Shown here: positions 1 through 4,325 of the stretch, in pieces
How positions within the stretch are numbered: position 1 is the first letter of the stretch
Layout: every line of letters begins with the position of its first letter
IMG/VR virus record: IMGVR_UViG_3300018478_000173
Reading direction: 5' to 3' (one strand)
DNA from: a virus
Taxonomy: Duplodnaviria; Heunggongvirae; Uroviricota; Caudoviricetes
Length of the DNA: 4,325 nt
The notes under the pieces: model-generated
Databases searched by the model: none
Told to the model about the DNA's origin: nothing
Seen by the model: the letters and a program-made list of their open reading frames with translations, nothing else
Position numbers and translations under genes: made by a program

Positions 1-32
1 AAGACTATCACTTAAATAAGTGATATTGGTTG

Positions 33-82
33 TCTGGAGATTCAGGGGGCCAGTCTATCTGGAGATTCAGGGGGCCAGTCTA
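33..82. repeat. Perfect tandem direct repeat, 2 x 25 bp (TCTGGAGATTCAGGGGGCCAGTCTA at 33-57 and 58-82); each copy contains a short inverted repeat CTGG...CCAG
   Basis: Read directly from the sequence; both copies identical over 25 bp and exactly adjacent. Sits in an intergenic stretch where all three + frames hit stops within the first 21 nt of the window. Confidence 0.9.
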
Positions 83-335
83 ATAAAACATATCCTGTAT
101 ATTTATGTTGTTACATACAGGCGCTTTTAGTATCTGCCGCACGGCAGTTGTACTTCAGAATAAGATGCTTTTGTGACTGGTGGTGTTGTATCTGGGGTTA
201 GCCAGGAGGCAGGTTCAGAGAGTCCGGTGGTAATTATGTGTATGCAGTGGTTGTTGCTGTACCGTGGGCAAGTTCTGGAACTGGCTTCGTCCATTGTAGA
301 TGATTGTTAGCTGGATATCAGTTACCTCATGGAAA

Positions 336-344
336 TGTTAAATG
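336..344 (+). promoter_or_regulatory. Candidate extended -10 element (TGtTAAATG) for unit 1; weaker than the others because the last position is G
   Basis: TG at 336-337, hexamer TAAATG at 339-344; no convincing -35. The equivalent position in units 2-4 reads TAAATT. Confidence 0.2.
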
Positions 345-350
345 ACTCAC

Positions 351-569
351 AATTCGGTTGATGGACTATTGTCTGATCGATGGAAGTCTTGTAAAAACGA
401 GCCAGCATAGTGAATCCCCCTGTGCGGAGGGGCGTCTGACATGGTCTCCATAGCGATGGTCACAATACGCAGATTCAGTAGTCAGGCTGAATCTACCGGG
501 AGGCACCCGGCACTATGCTGCTTATGGTGTATACATAGCGATCGGCCCCTCTCCGGAGGGGCTTTTTTT
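351..569 (+). ncRNA. Unit 1 candidate structured small RNA (~219 nt): 5' leader, closing helix 404-412/511-519, hairpin 417-432 (CCCCT-GTGCGG-AGGGG), divergent core 433-495, hairpin 496-510 (CCGGG-AGGCA-CCCGG), tail, terminator
   Basis: Closing helix is 9 perfect base pairs (AGCATAGTG with CACTATGCT) and carries an A-T pair where the other units have G-C. The core contains a strong local hairpin AGATTCAG-N8-CTGAATCT (471-494). No conserved reading frame. Confidence 0.45.
545..569 (+). terminator. Intrinsic terminator of unit 1: 7-bp GC stem (GCCCCTC/GAGGGGC), loop TCCG, then T7
   Basis: Perfect hairpin 545-562 followed by TTTTTTT 563-569. Confidence 0.8.
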
Positions 570-595
570 GTGCGGGAAAAGGCTGTGTTGTTAAG

Positions 596-604
596 TGTTA
601 AATT
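596..604 (+). promoter_or_regulatory. Candidate extended -10 promoter (TGtTAAATT) for unit 2; hexamer is the same as I recall for the lambda pR' -10 (TAAATT)
   Basis: TG 596-597, hexamer 599-604; predicted start near A611 in the conserved CCTCACA context; no canonical -35, as is common for extended -10 promoters. Confidence 0.3.
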
Positions 605-610
605 CCTCAC

Positions 611-838
611 AGTTCAGATGGTTGATGCTTGCCTGTCTGAGGGGGAGTTGTTAAAAAAGTTCTGCATGGTGAATCCCCCTGTGCGGAGGGGCGACTGGTG
701 TGATTTGCATCTTTTCTGTTGTAGGCAATGCAAACGCGGGTTCAGGGACACCAGACTGGACTCACCGGGAGGCACCCGGCACCATGTTCATGATGATACA
801 GATACGCAGTGTCAGCCCCTCTCCTGAGGGGCTTTTTT
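611..838 (+). ncRNA. Unit 2 candidate structured small RNA (~228 nt): closing helix 664-671/780-787, hairpin 676-691, divergent core 692-764, hairpin 765-779, terminator 815-838
   Basis: Closing helix GCATGGTG with CACCATGT (one G-U pair). Core contains nested hairpins (CTGGTGT 697-703 with ACACCAG 749-755; TTTGCAT 706-712 with ATGCAAA 730-736). Confidence 0.45.
815..838 (+). terminator. Intrinsic terminator of unit 2: same 7-bp stem, loop TCCT, then T6
   Basis: Hairpin 815-832 followed by TTTTTT 833-838; the only change from unit 1 is in the loop. Confidence 0.8.
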
Positions 839-865
839 ATGCAGGAAAAACGCTGTGTTGTGAAA

Positions 866-874
866 TGTTAAATT
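866..874 (+). promoter_or_regulatory. Candidate extended -10 promoter (TGtTAAATT) for unit 3
   Basis: TG 866-867, hexamer TAAATT 869-874; same position in the unit as in units 2 and 4. Confidence 0.3.
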
Positions 875-880
875 CCTCAC

Positions 881-1098
881 AGTTCAGATTGTTGATGCTT
901 GCCTGTCTTACGGGGAGTTGTTAAAAAAGTTCTGCATGGTGAATCCCCCTGAGCGGAGGGGCATATCAGCGCAGGTGTTTCTACTCTATCCTTTCTGTGC
1001 GGGTTCAGGTGCTGATACTGAACTCACCGGGAGGCACCCGGCATCATGCATATGGTTAACAGACACGTAGCGAAGCCCCTCTCCGGAGGGGCTTTTTT
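881..1098 (+). ncRNA. Unit 3 candidate structured small RNA (~218 nt): closing helix 933-941/1042-1050, hairpin 946-961 (loop GAGCGG), divergent core 962-1026, hairpin 1027-1041, terminator 1075-1098
   Basis: Closing helix TGCATGGTG with CATCATGCA (9 bp including one G-U). Core has the stem TATCAGC...GCTGATA. Confidence 0.45.
1075..1098 (+). terminator. Intrinsic terminator of unit 3: same 7-bp stem, loop TCCG, then T6
   Basis: Hairpin 1075-1092 followed by TTTTTT 1093-1098. Confidence 0.8.
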
Positions 1099-1115
1099 AT
1101 GCAGGGAAAAGGCTG

Positions 1116-1124
1116 TGTTGTGAA
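1116..1124 (+). promoter_or_regulatory. Candidate extended -10 promoter (TGtTAAATT) for unit 4
   Basis: TG 1116-1117, hexamer TAAATT 1119-1124; same position in the unit as in units 2 and 3. Confidence 0.3.
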
Positions 1125-1130
1125 ATGTTA

Positions 1131-1349
1131 AATTCCTCACAATTCATGAGGTTGATGATTGTCTGATTGATGAGGAGTTTGTTAAAAAAAACGGGCATGG
1201 TGAATCCCCCTGTGCGGAGGGGTGATATCGTATCATTTCCTGTGTGGCCGACTGATATCACGGACATTTGTTCACCGGGAGGCACCCGGCACCATGCAGT
1301 ATACAGAGATTAGGCATACATCCAGGCTCCTCATCGCAGGAGCCTTTTT
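1131..1349 (+). ncRNA. Unit 4 candidate structured small RNA (~219 nt): closing helix 1195-1202/1290-1297, hairpin 1207-1222, shortened core 1223-1274, hairpin 1275-1289, non-homologous terminator 1325-1349
   Basis: Closing helix GCATGGTG with CACCATGC (8 perfect bp). The 5' conserved block carries small insertions relative to units 2 and 3. Core has the stem TGATATC...GATATCA. Confidence 0.4.
1325..1349 (+). terminator. Intrinsic terminator of unit 4: different sequence, same architecture (GGCTCCT-CATCGC-AGGAGCC then T5)
   Basis: 7-bp stem 1325-1331 with 1338-1344, T-run 1345-1349. Replaces the GCCCCTC hairpin used by units 1-3. Confidence 0.7.
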
Positions 1350-1355
1350 ACATGT

Positions 1356-1384
1356 AAAAAAAACCGCTCCTGGGAAGAGCGGTT
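1356..1384 (-). terminator. Opposing-strand intrinsic terminator: A8 on + (U-run on -) abutting the hairpin CCGCTC-N7-GAGCGG; with 1325-1349 it forms a back-to-back bidirectional terminator around the perfect palindrome TTTTACATGTAAAA (1346-1359)
   Basis: Stem 1364-1369 with 1377-1382, extendable by two A-T pairs; A-run 1356-1363 precedes it on the + strand. Confidence 0.45.
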
Positions 1385-1581
1385 GGCAAGGAAGCAAGGA
1401 ATAAATAACAAAACGTGAAGTAATTTATTCAGCACCCTAATAATACCTTAGAGTAATCACCTTGCGCAACTGTAAGGGCGTATTTCTTTTTTGCGGGCTG
1501 TTTTTCTGTGTGACTTTTGTGTTTCCGGAGGTCAGCCCGTGCCTTCTCTGACTCAGAACATTATCCCGGCCGGGAGGATTC

Positions 1582-3546
1582 ATGGCATTTAAACACTACG
1601 ATGTGGTCAGGGCGGCATCGCCGTCAGACCTTGCTGAACGACTGACACAAAAACTGAAGGAGGGCTGGCAGCCATTTGGCAGTCCGGTGGCCATCACGCC
1701 TTATACCCTGATGCAGGCCATTGCGGCGGAAGGTGATGTCACCACACCAGTGGCGGTGACCGGTAATGAGGGTAAGGCGGTGGCTGTCAGTGCCACCAGC
1801 GACCCGGAGTATTACTTTGTTGTGGTTCTGGCAGGGCAGTCAAATGGCATGTCGTATGGTGAAGGTCTTCCGCTGCCGGAGACATATGACCGTCCGGACC
1901 CGCGTATTAAGCAACTGGCGCGCCGCAGTACGGTGACACCGGGCGGTGTCGCCTGTAAATATAACGACATCATTCCGGCGGACCATTGTCTGCATGATGT
2001 GCAGGACATGAGCCGTCTTAACCATCCGAAAGCGGAACTGTCAAAGGGGCAGTACGGAACCGTGGGGCAGGGGCTGCATATTGCCAAAAAACTGCTGCCG
2101 TTTATACCGGCGAATGCGGGCATTCTGCTGGTTCCGTGCTGTCGTGGTGGTTCAGCGTTCACCACCGGAGCTGATGGCACATACAGTGACGCTGGCGGTG
2201 CCTCGGAGAATTCAGCGCGCTGGGGTGTGGACAAGCCGCTGTATAAGGACCTTATCGGTCGAACAAAAGCAGCACTGAAGAAGAACCCGAAAAATGTGCT
2301 GTTTGCCGTGGTGTGGATGCAGGGGGAATTTGATTTTGGCGGTACGCCGGCAAATCACGCAGCACAGTTTGGTGCGCTGGTTGATAAATTCCGTGCAGAC
2401 CTGACGGATATGGCAGGTCAGTGCGTTGGTGGCTCTGCTGGCGGTGTTCCCTGGATATGCGGGGACACGACGTATTTCTGGAAGCAGAAGAACGAATCCA
2501 CGTACCAGACGGTGTACGGCAGCTATAAAAACAAAACGGAAAAGAATATCCATTTCGTACCGTTCATGACGGATGAGAACGGGGTGAATGTGCCGACGAA
2601 CAAACCGGAAGAAGACCCGGACATTCCGGGTATCGGGTATTACGGTTCGAAATGGCGTGACAGCTCAGCCACCTGGACGTCACAGGACAGGGCGAGCCAT
2701 TTCAGCACCTGGGCACGCCGGGGGATTATTTCCGACCGTCTGGCAACGGCGATTCTGGTGCACGCCGGGAGAACCGCTGAATTCATTACCGGAAAACAGC
2801 CTGATATGGTGAGGCCCACCGTACCTTCCGGTGAAGGTCCGGAGAGAGAGGCGGAAGCCCCGGCCAGTAAGCGTACCCTGATGAGTCTGCTGGCATCCGG
2901 CGAAGACCTGGCATCACAGGGCTGGCGCTATTATCACAAACCGGCGGGCGGAGACAGTGTTAACAAAAACATTGCTGAAGCGGTGGTCAGTGATGCGGGG
3001 GCTACGGGAGGTAAGGCTCTGCAACTGAACAAACCGGAAAACCACATCTGGTTTCTGGAGCATGATGCAGCCGGACAGGGGGCGGAGTTACTGAAGAAGG
3101 GCGGACGTGTGAGCGTACGGTTTAAGTTGCCGGGTTCACTGGTGCCGAATCAGTTTGCCCTGGGCATTTACTGGCAGTTGTCGTCCCTGCCGGAGGGGGT
3201 GATGCTGTCAGGAGAAGGTAACGATATGCTGATGTCTTTCTTCCTGCAGACGGATACGACGAACCTGAACGCGATGCATCACAGGAAGCCGAATGCGAAG
3301 CTGGATACATTCGGGGTCTTTGATAACGGATGGCACACGCTGGCTTTTGAGTTTGCCGGAAACAACAGCATTCAGGTGACACCAGTACTGGATGAGAAAC
3401 GGGGAGCGGCGTTCACACTGGTGAAGTCACCGGCATCGGGGGCGGTGGACAAACTGCAACTGACCGATATATCAAAATCGGCGACGTATACGCTGCTGAT
3501 TGACAGCATTGCGGTGGAAGTGAACAGCACAGACACTGCGGCATGA
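1582..3546 (+). CDS. nanS-p: Prophage-encoded sialate O-acetylesterase (NanS-p-like), 654 aa: N-terminal DUF1737-like domain, SGNH/SASA esterase domain with the GQSN motif, and a long C-terminal domain
   Basis: Intact 1965-nt ORF. GGAGGA at 1573-1578 just upstream of ATG 1582. GQSN at residues 85-88 (nt 1834-1845), characteristic of the sialate O-acetylesterase branch of SGNH hydrolases. The N-terminus MAFKHYDVVRAASPSDLAERLTQKLKEGWQPFGSPVAITPYTLMQAIAAEG matches, from memory, the DUF1737 N-terminal domain of NanS-p proteins of EHEC lambdoid prophages. Function is from recalled homology, not a search. Confidence 0.9.
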   Translation: MAFKHYDVVRAASPSDLAERLTQKLKEGWQPFGSPVAITPYTLMQAIAAEGDVTTPVAVTGNEGKAVAVSATSDPEYYFVVVLAGQSNGMSYGEGLPLPETYDRPDPRIKQLARRSTVTPGGVACKYNDIIPADHCLHDVQDMSRLNHPKAELSKGQYGTVGQGLHIAKKLLPFIPANAGILLVPCCRGGSAFTTGADGTYSDAGGASENSARWGVDKPLYKDLIGRTKAALKKNPKNVLFAVVWMQGEFDFGGTPANHAAQFGALVDKFRADLTDMAGQCVGGSAGGVPWICGDTTYFWKQKNESTYQTVYGSYKNKTEKNIHFVPFMTDENGVNVPTNKPEEDPDIPGIGYYGSKWRDSSATWTSQDRASHFSTWARRGIISDRLATAILVHAGRTAEFITGKQPDMVRPTVPSGEGPEREAEAPASKRTLMSLLASGEDLASQGWRYYHKPAGGDSVNKNIAEAVVSDAGATGGKALQLNKPENHIWFLEHDAAGQGAELLKKGGRVSVRFKLPGSLVPNQFALGIYWQLSSLPEGVMLSGEGNDMLMSFFLQTDTTNLNAMHHRKPNAKLDTFGVFDNGWHTLAFEFAGNNSIQVTPVLDEKRGAAFTLVKSPASGAVDKLQLTDISKSATYTLLIDSIAVEVNSTDTAA

Positions 3547-3583
3547 TAAAAAAAGCCGCCAGTTACCGGAATGGACTGGCGGT
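3547..3583 (-). terminator. Strong hairpin right after the nanS-p stop, oriented as an intrinsic terminator for the minus strand (A7 on + before the stem, no T-run after it)
   Basis: A-run 3548-3554; stem GCCGCCAGT (3555-3563) with ACTGGCGGT (3575-3583), 9 bp including one G-U; 11-nt loop. It may still slow plus-strand transcription after nanS-p, but it lacks the U-tract of a classic + terminator. Confidence 0.4.
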
Positions 3584-3651
3584 GGTAATACCCATGGAGA
3601 AATATAAAGGAACGATACTTTCGTGCTCTGTTTTTTTAAATGAAAACAGTT

Positions 3652-3667
3652 CTTATTGTCAACAATA
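3652..3667. promoter_or_regulatory. Inverted repeat TTATTG-N4-CAATAA upstream of the small TM ORF; overlaps a perfect TTGACA hexamer on the minus strand (+ coordinates 3656-3661)
   Basis: Read directly; 6-bp arms with a 4-bp centre. Could be an operator or a divergent promoter element. No binding protein can be assigned. Confidence 0.25.
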
Positions 3668-3680
3668 ACGGTAAGAAATT

Positions 3681-3860
3681 ATGACTTTTATTCATCAGGT
3701 GATGCTGTACTTCTGTACGGCAGTCTGTGTGCTGTATCTCCTTTCGGGTGGATACCGGGCCATGCGTGACTTCTGGCGCAGACAGATTGACAAAAGGGCC
3801 GCTGAGAAAATCAGCGCCAGTCAGTCAGCCGGAAGCAAACCCGAAGAGCCGCTCATTTAG
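3681..3860 (+). CDS. Small predicted membrane protein, 59 aa, not in the supplied ORF track (below its apparent length cutoff): hydrophobic N-terminal helix then a basic/polar tail
   Basis: ATG 3681 to TAG 3858-3860. Translation MTFIHQVMLYFCTAVCVLYLLSGGYRAMRDFWRRQIDKRAAEKISASQSAGSKPEEPLI has about 20 hydrophobic residues followed by R/K-rich sequence, a plausible single-pass TM peptide. The Shine-Dalgarno is weak (AAGAAA), and the ORF overlaps, in another frame, the implausible N-terminal extension of the 3727 ORF. Confidence 0.35.
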   Translation: MTFIHQVMLYFCTAVCVLYLLSGGYRAMRDFWRRQIDKRAAEKISASQSAGSKPEEPLI

Positions 3861-3900
3861 CGGCAACTTTCTTAATCACACCTTTCGACGAGAAAATCCC

Positions 3901-4173
3901 ATGTCAGAAATTACATCCCTGGTCACTGCTGAAGCAGTGAAGGACGTCCTGCGCTCTGAAGAAGTCCTGAGCGCACTGAAACAGAAACTCCGCCATAAGC
4001 TGGAAGCACGTCTTGATGCAGAAGTGGATGCCATTCTGGATGAGCTGCTTGGTGTACAGGCAGAGCCAGCGACTGAAGCGGGAGATACCACCGCAGAGAG
4101 CGGTGAAGTTCAGCCTGAATCACCGGTCGCCGATGCGACTGAACCGCAACCCGAATCGGTCATGATGCTGTAA
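3901..4173 (+). CDS. Small hypothetical protein, 90 aa: predicted helical N-terminal half and an acidic, Pro/Glu/Thr/Ala-rich, probably disordered C-terminal tail
   Basis: Chosen start ATG 3901 (MSEITSLVTAEAVKDVLRSEEVLSALKQKLRHKLEARLDAEVDAILDELLGVQAEPATEAGDTTAESGEVQPESPVADATEPQPESVMML). The track ORF 3727..4173 is in the same frame, but its extra N-terminal 58 aa are Cys/Arg/Ser-rich and not protein-like. Stop TAA 4171-4173, followed by a terminator. Confidence 0.6.
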   Translation: MSEITSLVTAEAVKDVLRSEEVLSALKQKLRHKLEARLDAEVDAILDELLGVQAEPATEAGDTTAESGEVQPESPVADATEPQPESVMML

Positions 4174-4183
4174 CGGGGGTCAG

Positions 4184-4213
4184 GGCCATCAGTAAACTGC
4201 TGCTGGCCTTTTT
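4184..4213 (+). terminator. Candidate intrinsic terminator between the acidic-protein gene and the holin gene
   Basis: Stem GGCCA (4184-4188) with TGGCC (4204-4208), extended by CAG/CTG with one mismatch; followed by TTTTT 4209-4213. Confidence 0.5.
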
Positions 4214-4248
4214 CATGTTGTGAGCTTCCGGATTGCGGGAGACGGGGT

Positions 4249-4325
4249 ATGTACCAGATGGAAAAAATCACAACAGGTGTGTCATACACCACGTCAGCGG
4301 TGGGAACGGGCTACTGGTTCCTGCA
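4249..4325 (+). CDS. S: 5' end of a phage holin gene, S21-type (pinholin-like) class II holin with a dual-start motif; continues past the window end
   Basis: GGGAG at 4237-4241, 7 nt before ATG 4249. Translation MYQMEKITTGVSYTTSAVGTGYWFL... has Met1 and Met4 (the antiholin/holin dual start) and resembles, from memory, the N-terminus of phage 21 S ([23 protein letters not shown]...). Confidence 0.8.
   Translation, partial: MYQMEKITTGVSYTTSAVGTGYWFL

Follow-up and report, generated by a model that had tools for sequence, protein, structure and literature searches.

Organisation of the nanS-p locus

The window, as the whole stretch of DNA analysed here is called, comprises 4,325 nucleotides of a Caudoviricetes record (IMG/VR IMGVR_UViG_3300018478_000173) and shares 99.8% identity with a lambdoid prophage in E. 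coli O22:H8 strain 154 (locus L001). The gene order of this prophage is Q, methylase, tRNA-Ile/Arg and other genes, STnc100, nanS-p, DUF1378, DUF826, holin, lysozyme, terminase and capsid, with nanS-p downstream of Q, the antiterminator gene, and ahead of the holin/lysozyme lysis cassette. In the window, nanS-p (1582-3546, plus strand) is an intact, ATG-initiated ORF for a prophage sialate 9-O-acetylesterase of 654 residues, preceded by a ribosome-binding site that can be read from the sequence (GGGAGG, 1572-1577). Two small ORFs on its 3' side are conserved neighbours: a DUF1378 ORF of 59 residues between nanS-p and the holin gene (3681-3860, plus strand; L001 15624-15803) and a DUF826 ORF (3901-4173, plus strand, within an enclosing ORF at 3727-4173; L001 15844-16116). 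The lysis cassette starts with a class II holin gene S, of which the window holds the 5' part (4249-4325, plus strand; L001 16192-16407); the match is 100% identical from position 4249 and is cut by the window end.

At the other end of the window, positions 1-82 are the end of a minus-strand insertion sequence of the IS3 family, which we take to be IS2 from its terminal sequence and which is context, not part of nanS-p. Its transposase gene lies upstream, also on the minus strand (IS3-family CDS at L001 10706-11934). The terminal 25 bp, TCTGGAGATTCAGGGGGCCAGTCTA, are present twice in tandem (33-57 and 58-82), and window positions 1-57 and 58-82 both map to the same IS end at L001 11969-12025. 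A search of IMG/VR for the duplicated junction returned zero exact matches, and complete E. coli genomes gave none beyond the single-copy form in strain 154.

Domain architecture of the esterase

An earlier note on this DNA had described an intact three-domain esterase of the NanS-p type with a DUF1737 N-terminus and a GQSN core, and matches in Pfam and the PDB bear this out. The DUF1737 domain (1588-1731, plus strand; residues 3-50; Pfam PF08410, E 9e-16) has a loop of type A (GSPVAITPYTLMQ). It is followed by a NanS-like SGNH/SASA catalytic domain (1792-2757, plus strand; residues 71-392), which in a PDB sequence search matched E. coli NanS/YjhS (3pt5, E 7e-116) with both catalytic motifs aligned; the Pfam SASA model (PF03629, E 5e-11) covers residues 80-276. 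The motif GQSN occupies residues 85-88, with the nucleophile Ser87 encoded at 1840-1842, and RASH occupies residues 370-373, with His373 encoded at 2698-2700. SGNH block IV of NanS-p proteins reads RASH or RSSH (PMC10462455). The third domain is a lectin-like jelly-roll (2971-3528, plus strand; residues 464-649) that matched the C-terminal domain of NanS-p (PDB 6yp6, E 3e-61), and Pfam DUF6645 (PF20350, E 3e-40) covers residues 504-617. An NCBIfam scan of the protein returned zero family matches. No signal peptide was found, the N-terminus MAFKHYDVVRAASPSDLAERL having no hydrophobic leader, and DUF1737 stands where a signal peptide would be.

The protein is 76% identical to NanS-p of phage 933W over the alignment (71.6% by tblastn), and the catalytic domain reaches 95%. 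Since the 933W enzyme has been characterised and its catalytic domain is this close, the window protein is predicted to act as an esterase on Neu5,9Ac2 or on the O-acetylated sialic acids of mucin. The C-terminal domain is a variant that shares 57% identity with the type crystallised from 933W/phi24B. Of the four aromatic positions proposed to bind sugar, as defined by the phi24B residues in PMC10462455, three are still aromatic (F525, Y530 and F554), and the fourth position (F611 in phi24B) falls inside a one-residue deletion; thus, substrate targeting may differ. The allele differs by three residues from WP_062892286.1 of strain 154. As a whole, positions 1582-3546 are best explained as a functional copy of nanS-p from an stx-negative prophage, one of the multi-copy esterase genes that lambdoid prophages of pathogenic E. 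coli carry in their late operon; we regard this explanation as probable.

The STnc100 array and the nanS-p leader

The earlier note had also reported an array of RNA modules upstream of the gene, which the Rfam search confirmed. Four tandem, full-length STnc100 (RF02076) sRNA-like units make up the array on the plus strand between 376 and 1355 (376-571, 635-844, 906-1104 and 1166-1355), with Rfam scores of 119-142 bits against a gathering score of 47. Every unit ends with a G+C-rich hairpin followed by a T-run (544-563, 814-833, 1078-1091 and 1324-1345). The nanS-p leader proper (1356-1581, plus strand) holds further hairpins and the ribosome-binding site. Its first hairpin (1362-1384) resembles a terminator when read on the minus strand and matches the position of the antisense sRNA AsxR in 933W (L002 11796-11848, minus strand), and a second, conserved plus-strand hairpin with a T-run lies at 1460-1477. 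The hairpin core GCGCAACTG and the region of the ribosome-binding site and ATG are conserved in an alignment with 933W, BP-4795 and locus L053. No Rfam match at E = 1 or better to an AsxR, AgvB or PasA-type sRNA was found in the window, and a match resembling Esr41 stayed below threshold (25 bits against a gathering score of 102). Similarly, PasA/PasC, AsxR and AgvB had no Rfam-level match between the esterase and holin genes.

This array had been read as present instead of stx, an interpretation contradicted by the wider distribution of the units. At least one STnc100 unit lies within 1.5 kb upstream of nanS-p in 123 of 126 non-redundant loci, including all 26 of the stx-positive ones, and in 933W one unit is found between stxB2 and nanS-p. 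Thus, the array does not replace stx. A single unit ahead of nanS-p is the norm and the four-unit array is confined to a few lineages; the four units are an expansion of the standard single leader element. Since STnc100 normally forms the leader of nanS-p whether stx is present or not, it is no marker of stx loss, a point of use for annotation.

The stx-negative context

The absence of stx next to the gene, claimed earlier, holds: tblastn searches with StxA2 and StxB2 found nothing in the window, and StxA/StxB searches of the 13.5 kb upstream in the strain 154 prophage were also empty. The layout given earlier for Stx phages, with tRNA genes, stxAB and nanS-p in that order, is right for 933W; neither the window nor the strain 154 prophage has stxAB directly 5' of nanS-p, and the position of stx is taken in the latter by an ORF annotated as 'TolA', a methylase fragment, an HTH gene and IS2. 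The claim that tRNA genes are missing stands for the window, in which ARAGORN found none, and fails for the prophage, in which ileZ/argN/argO-type tRNA genes do lie downstream of Q/pR', outside the window. These are a tRNA-Ile and a tRNA-Arg gene at L001 8036-8196, about 5.3-5.5 kb upstream of the nanS-p ATG, so that their absence from the window is partly an effect of where the window starts. Nor does the array fill the slot between the late promoter and nanS-p, as had been suggested, since the same stretch of the strain 154 prophage also holds a methylase gene, the two tRNA genes, the 'TolA' ORF, a fifth STnc100 unit, the methylase fragment, the HTH gene and IS2.

The locus had accordingly been called an stx-negative variant of the Stx-phage locus. 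Synteny agrees to the extent that this is the Q-to-lysis region of an stx-free lambdoid prophage; 'variant' is the wrong word for a state that is both the majority and published. We counted 2744 copies of nanS-p in 1055 of 5426 complete E. coli genomes (median three, maximum seven per genome), and stx lay upstream in only 27 of the 115 non-redundant IMG/VR loci sampled. Genes for nanS-p in an stx-negative context have been described repeatedly (PMC10462455; PMC8065619; bioRxiv 10.64898/2026.05.13.724894). Since the stx-free context is the usual one for nanS-p, the finding itself is ordinary and matters little: such prophage genes are common, published and functionally characterised.

Late expression and release

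We propose that nanS-p would be transcribed as a late gene, with Q-modified RNA polymerase passing the terminator hairpins that lie in the STnc100 units and in the leader. Q-modified polymerase typically passes terminators, as in lambda. At least five terminator-like hairpins lie ahead of nanS-p, and a crude consensus search, which weak or non-sigma-70 promoters could escape, found no sigma-70-like promoter on the plus strand in the 1.5 kb upstream. The cytoplasmic enzyme would be freed only by lysis of the induced fraction of lysogens. Outside the cell it would remove the 9-O-acetyl group from Neu5,9Ac2 on mucin glycans, the C-terminal sugar-binding domain targeting the enzyme, and the Neu5Ac released could then be used by surviving siblings. 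The 933W gene z1466 belongs to those with the strongest induction by norfloxacin (PMC8065619), and nanS-p expression goes up when phages are induced (PMC10462455).

The strongest competing explanation regards nanS-p as pure lysogenic-conversion cargo (a 'moron'), an accessory metabolic hitch-hiker with no role in the virion or the life cycle, whose expression in the lysogen may not depend on late transcription. NanS-p alleles are active and allow EHEC to grow on Neu5,9Ac2, which extends to alleles from stx-negative prophages (PMC8065619; PMC10462455), and the gene sits in the classic moron position 3' of Q, beside stx in Stx phages. Furthermore, its catalytic and C-terminal segments are freely shuffled among phage types, as would be expected of exchangeable cargo. 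However, the hairpins and the result of the promoter search described above argue against independent expression, and a living lysogen cannot export a NanS-p that has no signal peptide.

DUF1737 and the phage head

The homologue in phage phi24B, gp84, is an abundant virion protein that decorates the capsid through DUF1737, which forms hexamers on the capsid hexons (bioRxiv 10.64898/2026.04.10.717836, a 2026 preprint). According to the same work, the binding site is a hexon specific to the T=9 capsid, the protein sits on the capsid faces and not on the tail, and the anchoring loop of DUF1737 carries a tyrosine 'tooth', Tyr42. In the window protein this loop is three residues shorter than in 933W and has a tyrosine at position 41, which MAFFT does not align to Tyr42. 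The partner capsid also differs: instead of a capsid of the 933W/phi24B type (Phage_capsid_3, T=9), the strain 154 prophage encodes an S78-protease/HK97-type capsid fusion (PF04586 and PF05065; L001 22253-24190) with a PF04860 portal, an HK97-like head designated type II.

Across loci, the N-terminal type follows the type of head. The scan covered lambda gpE-type, HK97/S78-fusion, ClpP-fusion and 933W/phi24B heads, and the combinations of N-terminal type and head type were A-I (24 loci), A-II (10), C-III (16) and B-IV (10), with three exceptions in all: L161 (A-III), L181 (B-II) and phage NC_004913 (type C with head IV, the 933W type). The association forms an island confined to codons 1-80. 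Adjusted mutual information (AMI) with head type is 0.66-0.80 at codons 34-58, compared with at most 0.25 for the upstream flanks and leader and at most 0.17 for the catalytic, C-terminal and downstream (700 nt) segments. Simple physical linkage is therefore ruled out as its cause, because the catalytic, C-terminal and downstream segments separate the DUF1737 codons from the head genes and yet show so little association. That each DUF1737 type goes with exactly one head type is likewise ruled out by the pairing of type A with heads I and II and by the three exceptions. The two heads paired with type A have unrelated major capsid proteins, one of the lambda gpE type and one the S78-protease/HK97 fusion, neither of which belongs to the phi24B family. 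BP-4795 exemplifies phages with a type A NanS-p and head type II, and PhiR12_2_star those with head type I. A scan of GTDB species representatives yielded only five loci (E. albertii, one E. coli, a DUF1737-only Xanthomonas fragment and two SASA-only proteins), too few for the head-type analysis to be extended beyond Escherichia.

By analogy with gp84, these patterns lean towards DUF1737 tethering the enzyme to the product of the phage's own head module, a reading we favour by a modest degree. If the tether holds, the protein is virion-associated and not pure lysogenic-conversion cargo. The cargo explanation has no place for an abundant capsid-bound protein such as gp84, and hitch-hiking fails to predict that only the segment coding for DUF1737, and not its flanks, follows the head type; we regard it as unlikely, and the label 'cargo' used earlier for this gene as doubtful, given a capsid-decorating homologue and the specific coupling of the DUF1737 segment to the head module.

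More generally, NanS-p might consist of exchangeable enzyme modules carried by a capsid anchor, with loop variants A, B and C matching the esterase to its own head across at least four unrelated head architectures, and with catalytic and lectin-like modules recombining freely among prophage copies in the same genome. The type A protein of the window would, on this view, bind to or decorate the HK97-like head encoded by its prophage. This broader proposal, to which we give slightly less than an even chance, is unproven, given that type A pairs with two capsid families and that three recombinants break the pattern. It extends a cryo-EM preprint on a single phage.

Possible effect of the IS2 insertion

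The second competing explanation is that nanS-p is a silent relic, with an intact ORF that is not expressed in this strain because the prophage is defective and IS2 separates the gene from the late promoter. The element does separate the Q/tRNA region from the STnc100 array, its transposase being encoded on the other strand, and among 5426 complete genomes an IS at this site was found only in the strain 154 lineage. IS2 could reduce or block late transcription in this lineage, and its prophage may be defective. Disrupted copies of nanS-p are known elsewhere (L049, L050, L065 and PhiR5_2). However, the ORF in the window is full length with every catalytic motif present, the lysis and head genes downstream of it in the strain 154 prophage are annotated as intact, and the passage of Q-modified polymerase through terminators would apply here as well. 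IS-free copies at 98-99% identity are also widespread, with 79 genomes covering at least 80% of the window; strain JNEC-KY202 is one IS-free relative. A silent relic thus appears improbable.

It is more doubtful still that the esterase is an adsorption or receptor-modifying enzyme acting on O-acetylated bacterial O-antigen or capsule instead of host mucin, a possibility left open in a review (PMC8065619) and compatible with virion display in phi24B as a sign of action during infection, given a catalytic domain about 95% identical to that of NanS-p enzymes active on Neu5,9Ac2 and mucin O-glycans, its close kinship to the chromosomal sialate esterase NanS, and the location of the phi24B protein on capsid faces and not on the tail.

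Returning to a NanS-p tethered to the phage head, the label of the family may need to change from 'metabolic moron' to virion-associated enzyme. In that case, its role in EHEC colonisation would be a matter of phage behaviour in mucus and not of lysogen nutrition, and DUF1737 would be a candidate portable anchor for capsid display.

Comparison with known systems

A block of pasD/STnc100, sialic acid esterase, pasA/pasC, holin and lysozyme is common in E. coli chromosomes and rarely lies beside stx (Zhu, Shabalina & Storz, bioRxiv 2026). The window resembles this block in having an STnc100/PasD-family sRNA directly 5' of the esterase and a holin/lysozyme operon on the 3' side, and differs from it in its four tandem STnc100 units and in the lack of an Rfam-level PasA/PasC match.

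The closest characterised relatives are NanS-p of 933W (z1466 / L0105) and vb_24B_21 (gp84) of phi24B. They share with the window protein DUF1737, SASA and a lectin-like C-terminal domain, a catalytic domain that is 95% identical with GQSN and RASH kept, and a position between Q and holin S behind the same STnc100 leader. The gene order of 933W is that of the strain 154 prophage, except that stx2AB has been inserted ahead of a single STnc100 unit. In contrast, the window has no stx upstream and four STnc100 units instead of one. Its DUF1737 loop is of type A and not type B, with residues 34-74 only 23% identical and the tyrosine loop three residues shorter, its C-terminal domain shares 57% identity and has no counterpart of F611, and its prophage has an HK97-like (type II) head where 933W and phi24B have a podovirus head.

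The window falls into the same category as the alleles of stx-negative lambdoid prophages such as CP-933 of EDL933 and those of O104:H4, which belong to the same gene family and have an stx-less late region. Those alleles are experimentally active, whereas the activity of the window allele is predicted, and its four-unit array is found in few lineages. Chromosomal NanS (YjhS), whose gene belongs to the nanCMS operon, is a periplasmic enzyme that has a signal peptide and consists of a single domain. The window protein has a homologous SGNH/SASA domain (3pt5) in which the aligned catalytic serine and histidine are conserved, but it is encoded by a prophage and carries an N-terminal DUF1737 and an additional lectin-like domain at its C-terminus.

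The nanS-p gene and its product

The gene at 1582-3546 (plus strand, ATG start, 654 aa) is preceded at 4 nt by the ribosome-binding site GGGAGG. It had been read in the earlier note as an intact three-domain NanS-p esterase, and this identification was borne out. Pfam places DUF1737 at aa 3-50, SASA at aa 80-276 and DUF6645 at aa 504-617, and in PDB sequence searches Escherichia coli NanS/YjhS (3pt5) was matched by aa 71-392 at E 7e-116 and the crystallised C-terminal domain of NanS-p (6yp6) by aa 464-649 at E 3e-61. The catalytic motifs are GQSN with Ser87 and a RASH block with His373, the NanS-p versions of the SGNH blocks (PMC10462455). The gene shows all testable defining features of the NanS-p family, and it is an ordinary gene whose identity was correctly recognised.

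Comparison with the NanS-p of the reference Stx2a phage 933W indicates a mosaic protein, in which a strongly conserved enzyme is flanked by two variable modules. Identity is 91% over aa 1-33, 23% over aa 34-74 (the second half of DUF1737 and the linker), 95% over the catalytic aa 75-397, 32% over the linker at aa 398-463, and 57% over the lectin-like aa 464-654. Three of the four sugar-binding aromatics proposed for the phi24B homologue are still aromatic (Tyr510, Tyr515 and Tyr540 paired with F525, Y530 and F554), and the position of the fourth, F611, falls on a one-residue deletion in the window protein.

Genomic setting

The chromosome of E. coli O22:H8 strain 154 matches window 58-4325 at 99.8% identity (locus L001; subtracting 11943 from an L001 position gives the window position), and 80% or more of the window is covered by 79 complete genomes. 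Six of the seven differences from strain 154 crowd into 39 bp of the catalytic domain (window 2193-2231; L001 14136-14174) and alter three residues (G205S, A212T, D217G), with strain 154 carrying the 933W-type residue at the first two. This cluster resembles a short tract of gene conversion between nanS-p paralogues.

L001 is a stx-negative lambdoid prophage with nanS-p within the late operon. The gene order is Q, two hypothetical genes, a DNA methyltransferase, tRNA-Ile and tRNA-Arg; then an ORF annotated 'TolA', one STnc100 unit (Rfam RF02076, sRNA-like), a methyltransferase fragment, an HTH gene and an IS3-family element; then four STnc100 units, nanS-p, DUF1378, DUF826, holin, lysozyme and spanin; and finally terminase, capsid, portal and tail genes. 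The claim that tRNA genes were absent holds within the window, where ARAGORN found none, but not for the locus, as the two tRNA genes of L001 lie ~5.4 kb upstream of the nanS-p ATG, beyond the window edge. The 142-aa 'TolA' ORF (L001 8475-8903) lies just after them, at the position of stxAB in 933W.

The window begins with an IS end (1-82), which we take to be IS2 from its terminal sequence, and the terminal 25 bp (TCTGGAGATTCAGGGGGCCAGTCTA) are doubled in tandem. Among 5426 complete genomes this IS occurs at this site in strain 154 only, with a single copy of the 25 bp. The doubled junction, which had no exact match in IMG/VR or in any other complete E. coli genome, may be either a genuine variant or an assembly artefact. 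The upstream IS2 may weaken or block nanS-p expression in this lineage.

The STnc100 leader and expression

The RNA-module array reported upstream of nanS-p was confirmed as four full-length Rfam matches to STnc100 (376-571, 635-844, 906-1104 and 1166-1355). STnc100 is the regular leader of nanS-p: of the 126 non-redundant loci whose sequence extends 1.5 kb or more upstream, 123 carry one or more cores no further than 1.5 kb from the ATG, with one copy in 108 loci, two in 10, three in 1 and four in 4. On this census the four units of the window are a rare expansion. Arrays of three or four units are confined to L184 and the window's own lineage (four in L001, L006 and L008; three in L005). A fifth unit of L001 (9011-9223), 3.3 kb further upstream, flanks the methylase fragment, HTH gene and IS insert, which suggests recombination between units. 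The synteny of a STnc100/PasD-family sRNA, sialic acid esterase and holin/lysozyme has already been described, and its chromosomal copies rarely adjoin stx (bioRxiv 10.64898/2026.05.13.724894).

On the minus strand the hairpin at 1362-1384 resembles an intrinsic terminator, and it lies exactly at the AsxR position of 933W, though with a different stem sequence. Window 1356-1410 (minus strand) gave no Rfam match to AsxR/AgvB; the region may encode an antisense sRNA that has diverged in sequence but kept its position. Directly after the nanS-p stop, 3548-3621 (minus strand) has a sub-threshold Esr41-like match (25 bits; gathering score 102). PasD/STnc100 loci often have Esr41 nearby, and PasA/PasC are located between esterase and holin genes (bioRxiv 10.64898/2026.05.13.724894).

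A terminator-like hairpin closes each STnc100 unit, another hairpin, conserved and with a T-run, is found at 1460-1477, and a consensus scan of the plus strand found no sigma-70-like site. NanS-p homologues are induced alongside stx under phage-inducing conditions (PMC8065619; PMC10462455). The window nanS-p would be a late gene transcribed by Q-modified polymerase. Since its product carries no signal peptide, release through phage lysis would be expected, and the freed enzyme would, by analogy, de-O-acetylate Neu5,9Ac2 on mucin, as demonstrated for homologues (PMC8065619).

DUF1737 type and head type

The NanS-p of phi24B, gp84, is reported to be an abundant virion protein, in which DUF1737 hexamers plug the central pore of capsid hexons via a Tyr42 loop and the remainder is cleaved away over time (2026 preprint, bioRxiv 10.64898/2026.04.10.717836). 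The DUF1737 loops of 189 fetched loci fall into three types: A (…ITPYTLMQ…; the window), B (…AGYGAEF…; 933W, phi24B) and C (…YTDDGAAL…). Four head types were distinguished: I (lambda-like, gpE capsid protein), II (S78-protease/HK97 capsid fusion; L001, BP-4795), III (ClpP/capsid fusion) and IV (933W/phi24B type). Non-redundant pairs were A-I 24, A-II 10, C-III 16 and B-IV 10. These counts include six separately fetched phage genomes, all of which fit the pattern (BP-4795, PhiR12_2_star, phage 86, Stx1a_11KH263, PhiR5_2, Stx2_12E129_yecE). There were three exceptions, namely A-III (L161, ClpP-fusion head), B-II (L181, HK97-type head) and phage NC_004913 (L093/L095; type C with the 933W-type head IV), which would be natural test cases for capsid binding by a mismatched anchor.

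Adjusted mutual information with head type was 0.11-0.25 for three upstream segments (-700 to -1), 0.52-0.68 for codons 1-33 at 90-95% identity thresholds (one cluster, 0.00, at 80%), 0.66-0.80 for codons 34-58, 0.36-0.58 for codons 59-80, 0.05-0.17 for the two catalytic halves, 0.09-0.15 for the C-terminal domain and 0.04-0.11 for the 700 nt past the stop codon. At protein level the N-terminus reached 0.74, against 0.04 for the catalytic and 0.13 for the C-terminal domain. The association is thus limited to the DUF1737-coding segment. Simple linkage does not account for this island, because the head genes lie 4-8 kb away and weakly associated segments separate them from the DUF1737 codons. 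Selection for compatibility of DUF1737 with a product of the head module would account for it.

The prophages sampled are relatives from a single genus, type A is found with two unrelated capsid families, both different from that of phi24B, and the phi24B binding site is peculiar to its T=9 lattice (bioRxiv 10.64898/2026.04.10.717836). For these reasons virion association of the window protein is rated as plausible, with an even chance or somewhat better. That the DUF1737 variants are head-specific anchors is a more tentative proposal, falling just short of an even chance; if true, NanS-p would be a modular enzyme displayed on the capsids of several head architectures. The esterase assignment stands, but the label "cargo" is questionable given the virion location of gp84 and the tracking of head type by DUF1737.

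Comparison with stx-linked loci

The Stx-phage synteny given in the earlier note was upheld in 933W, where Q is followed by pR', three tRNAs, stx2A, stx2B, a 486-bp spacer, nanS-p, S and R. The window was correctly described as free of stx (tblastn with StxA2 and StxB2 gave no match). However, the view that the array sits there instead of stx is wrong: the 933W spacer downstream of stx2B holds one STnc100 unit (208 bits) with the antisense sRNA AsxR after it, and one or two units are present in every one of the 26 stx-positive loci, so the RNA module is not a stand-in for stx.

Nor is the locus a special stx-negative variant, as nanS-p without stx is not unusual. Of 5426 complete E. coli genomes, 1055 contain catalytic-domain DNA, at 2744 places in total (median 3 per genome, maximum 7). 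Among non-redundant IMG/VR loci that extend 2.5 kb or more upstream, stx was present in 27 of 115, a sample biased by the use of the 933W protein as one of three queries. EDL933 is known to have seven or more NanS-p genes and O104:H4 five, with active enzymes (PMC8065619), and stx-free prophages also encode NanS-p (PMC10462455). In L049, L050, L065 and L092 (PhiR5_2) nanS-p has an early stop at 62-165 codons, with the remainder in another frame or ORF, and the gene is therefore dispensable in some prophages and phages. In L004 (8269-11962) and L007 (8270-11962) stx1AB is directly followed by a 98%-identical allele, with only one STnc100 unit intervening, so the window allele is not specific to stx-negative phages. 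Compared with the stx-nanS-p locus, the window locus lacks the defining feature, stx; it belongs with the NanS-p genes of stx-negative lambdoid prophages, a class already described.
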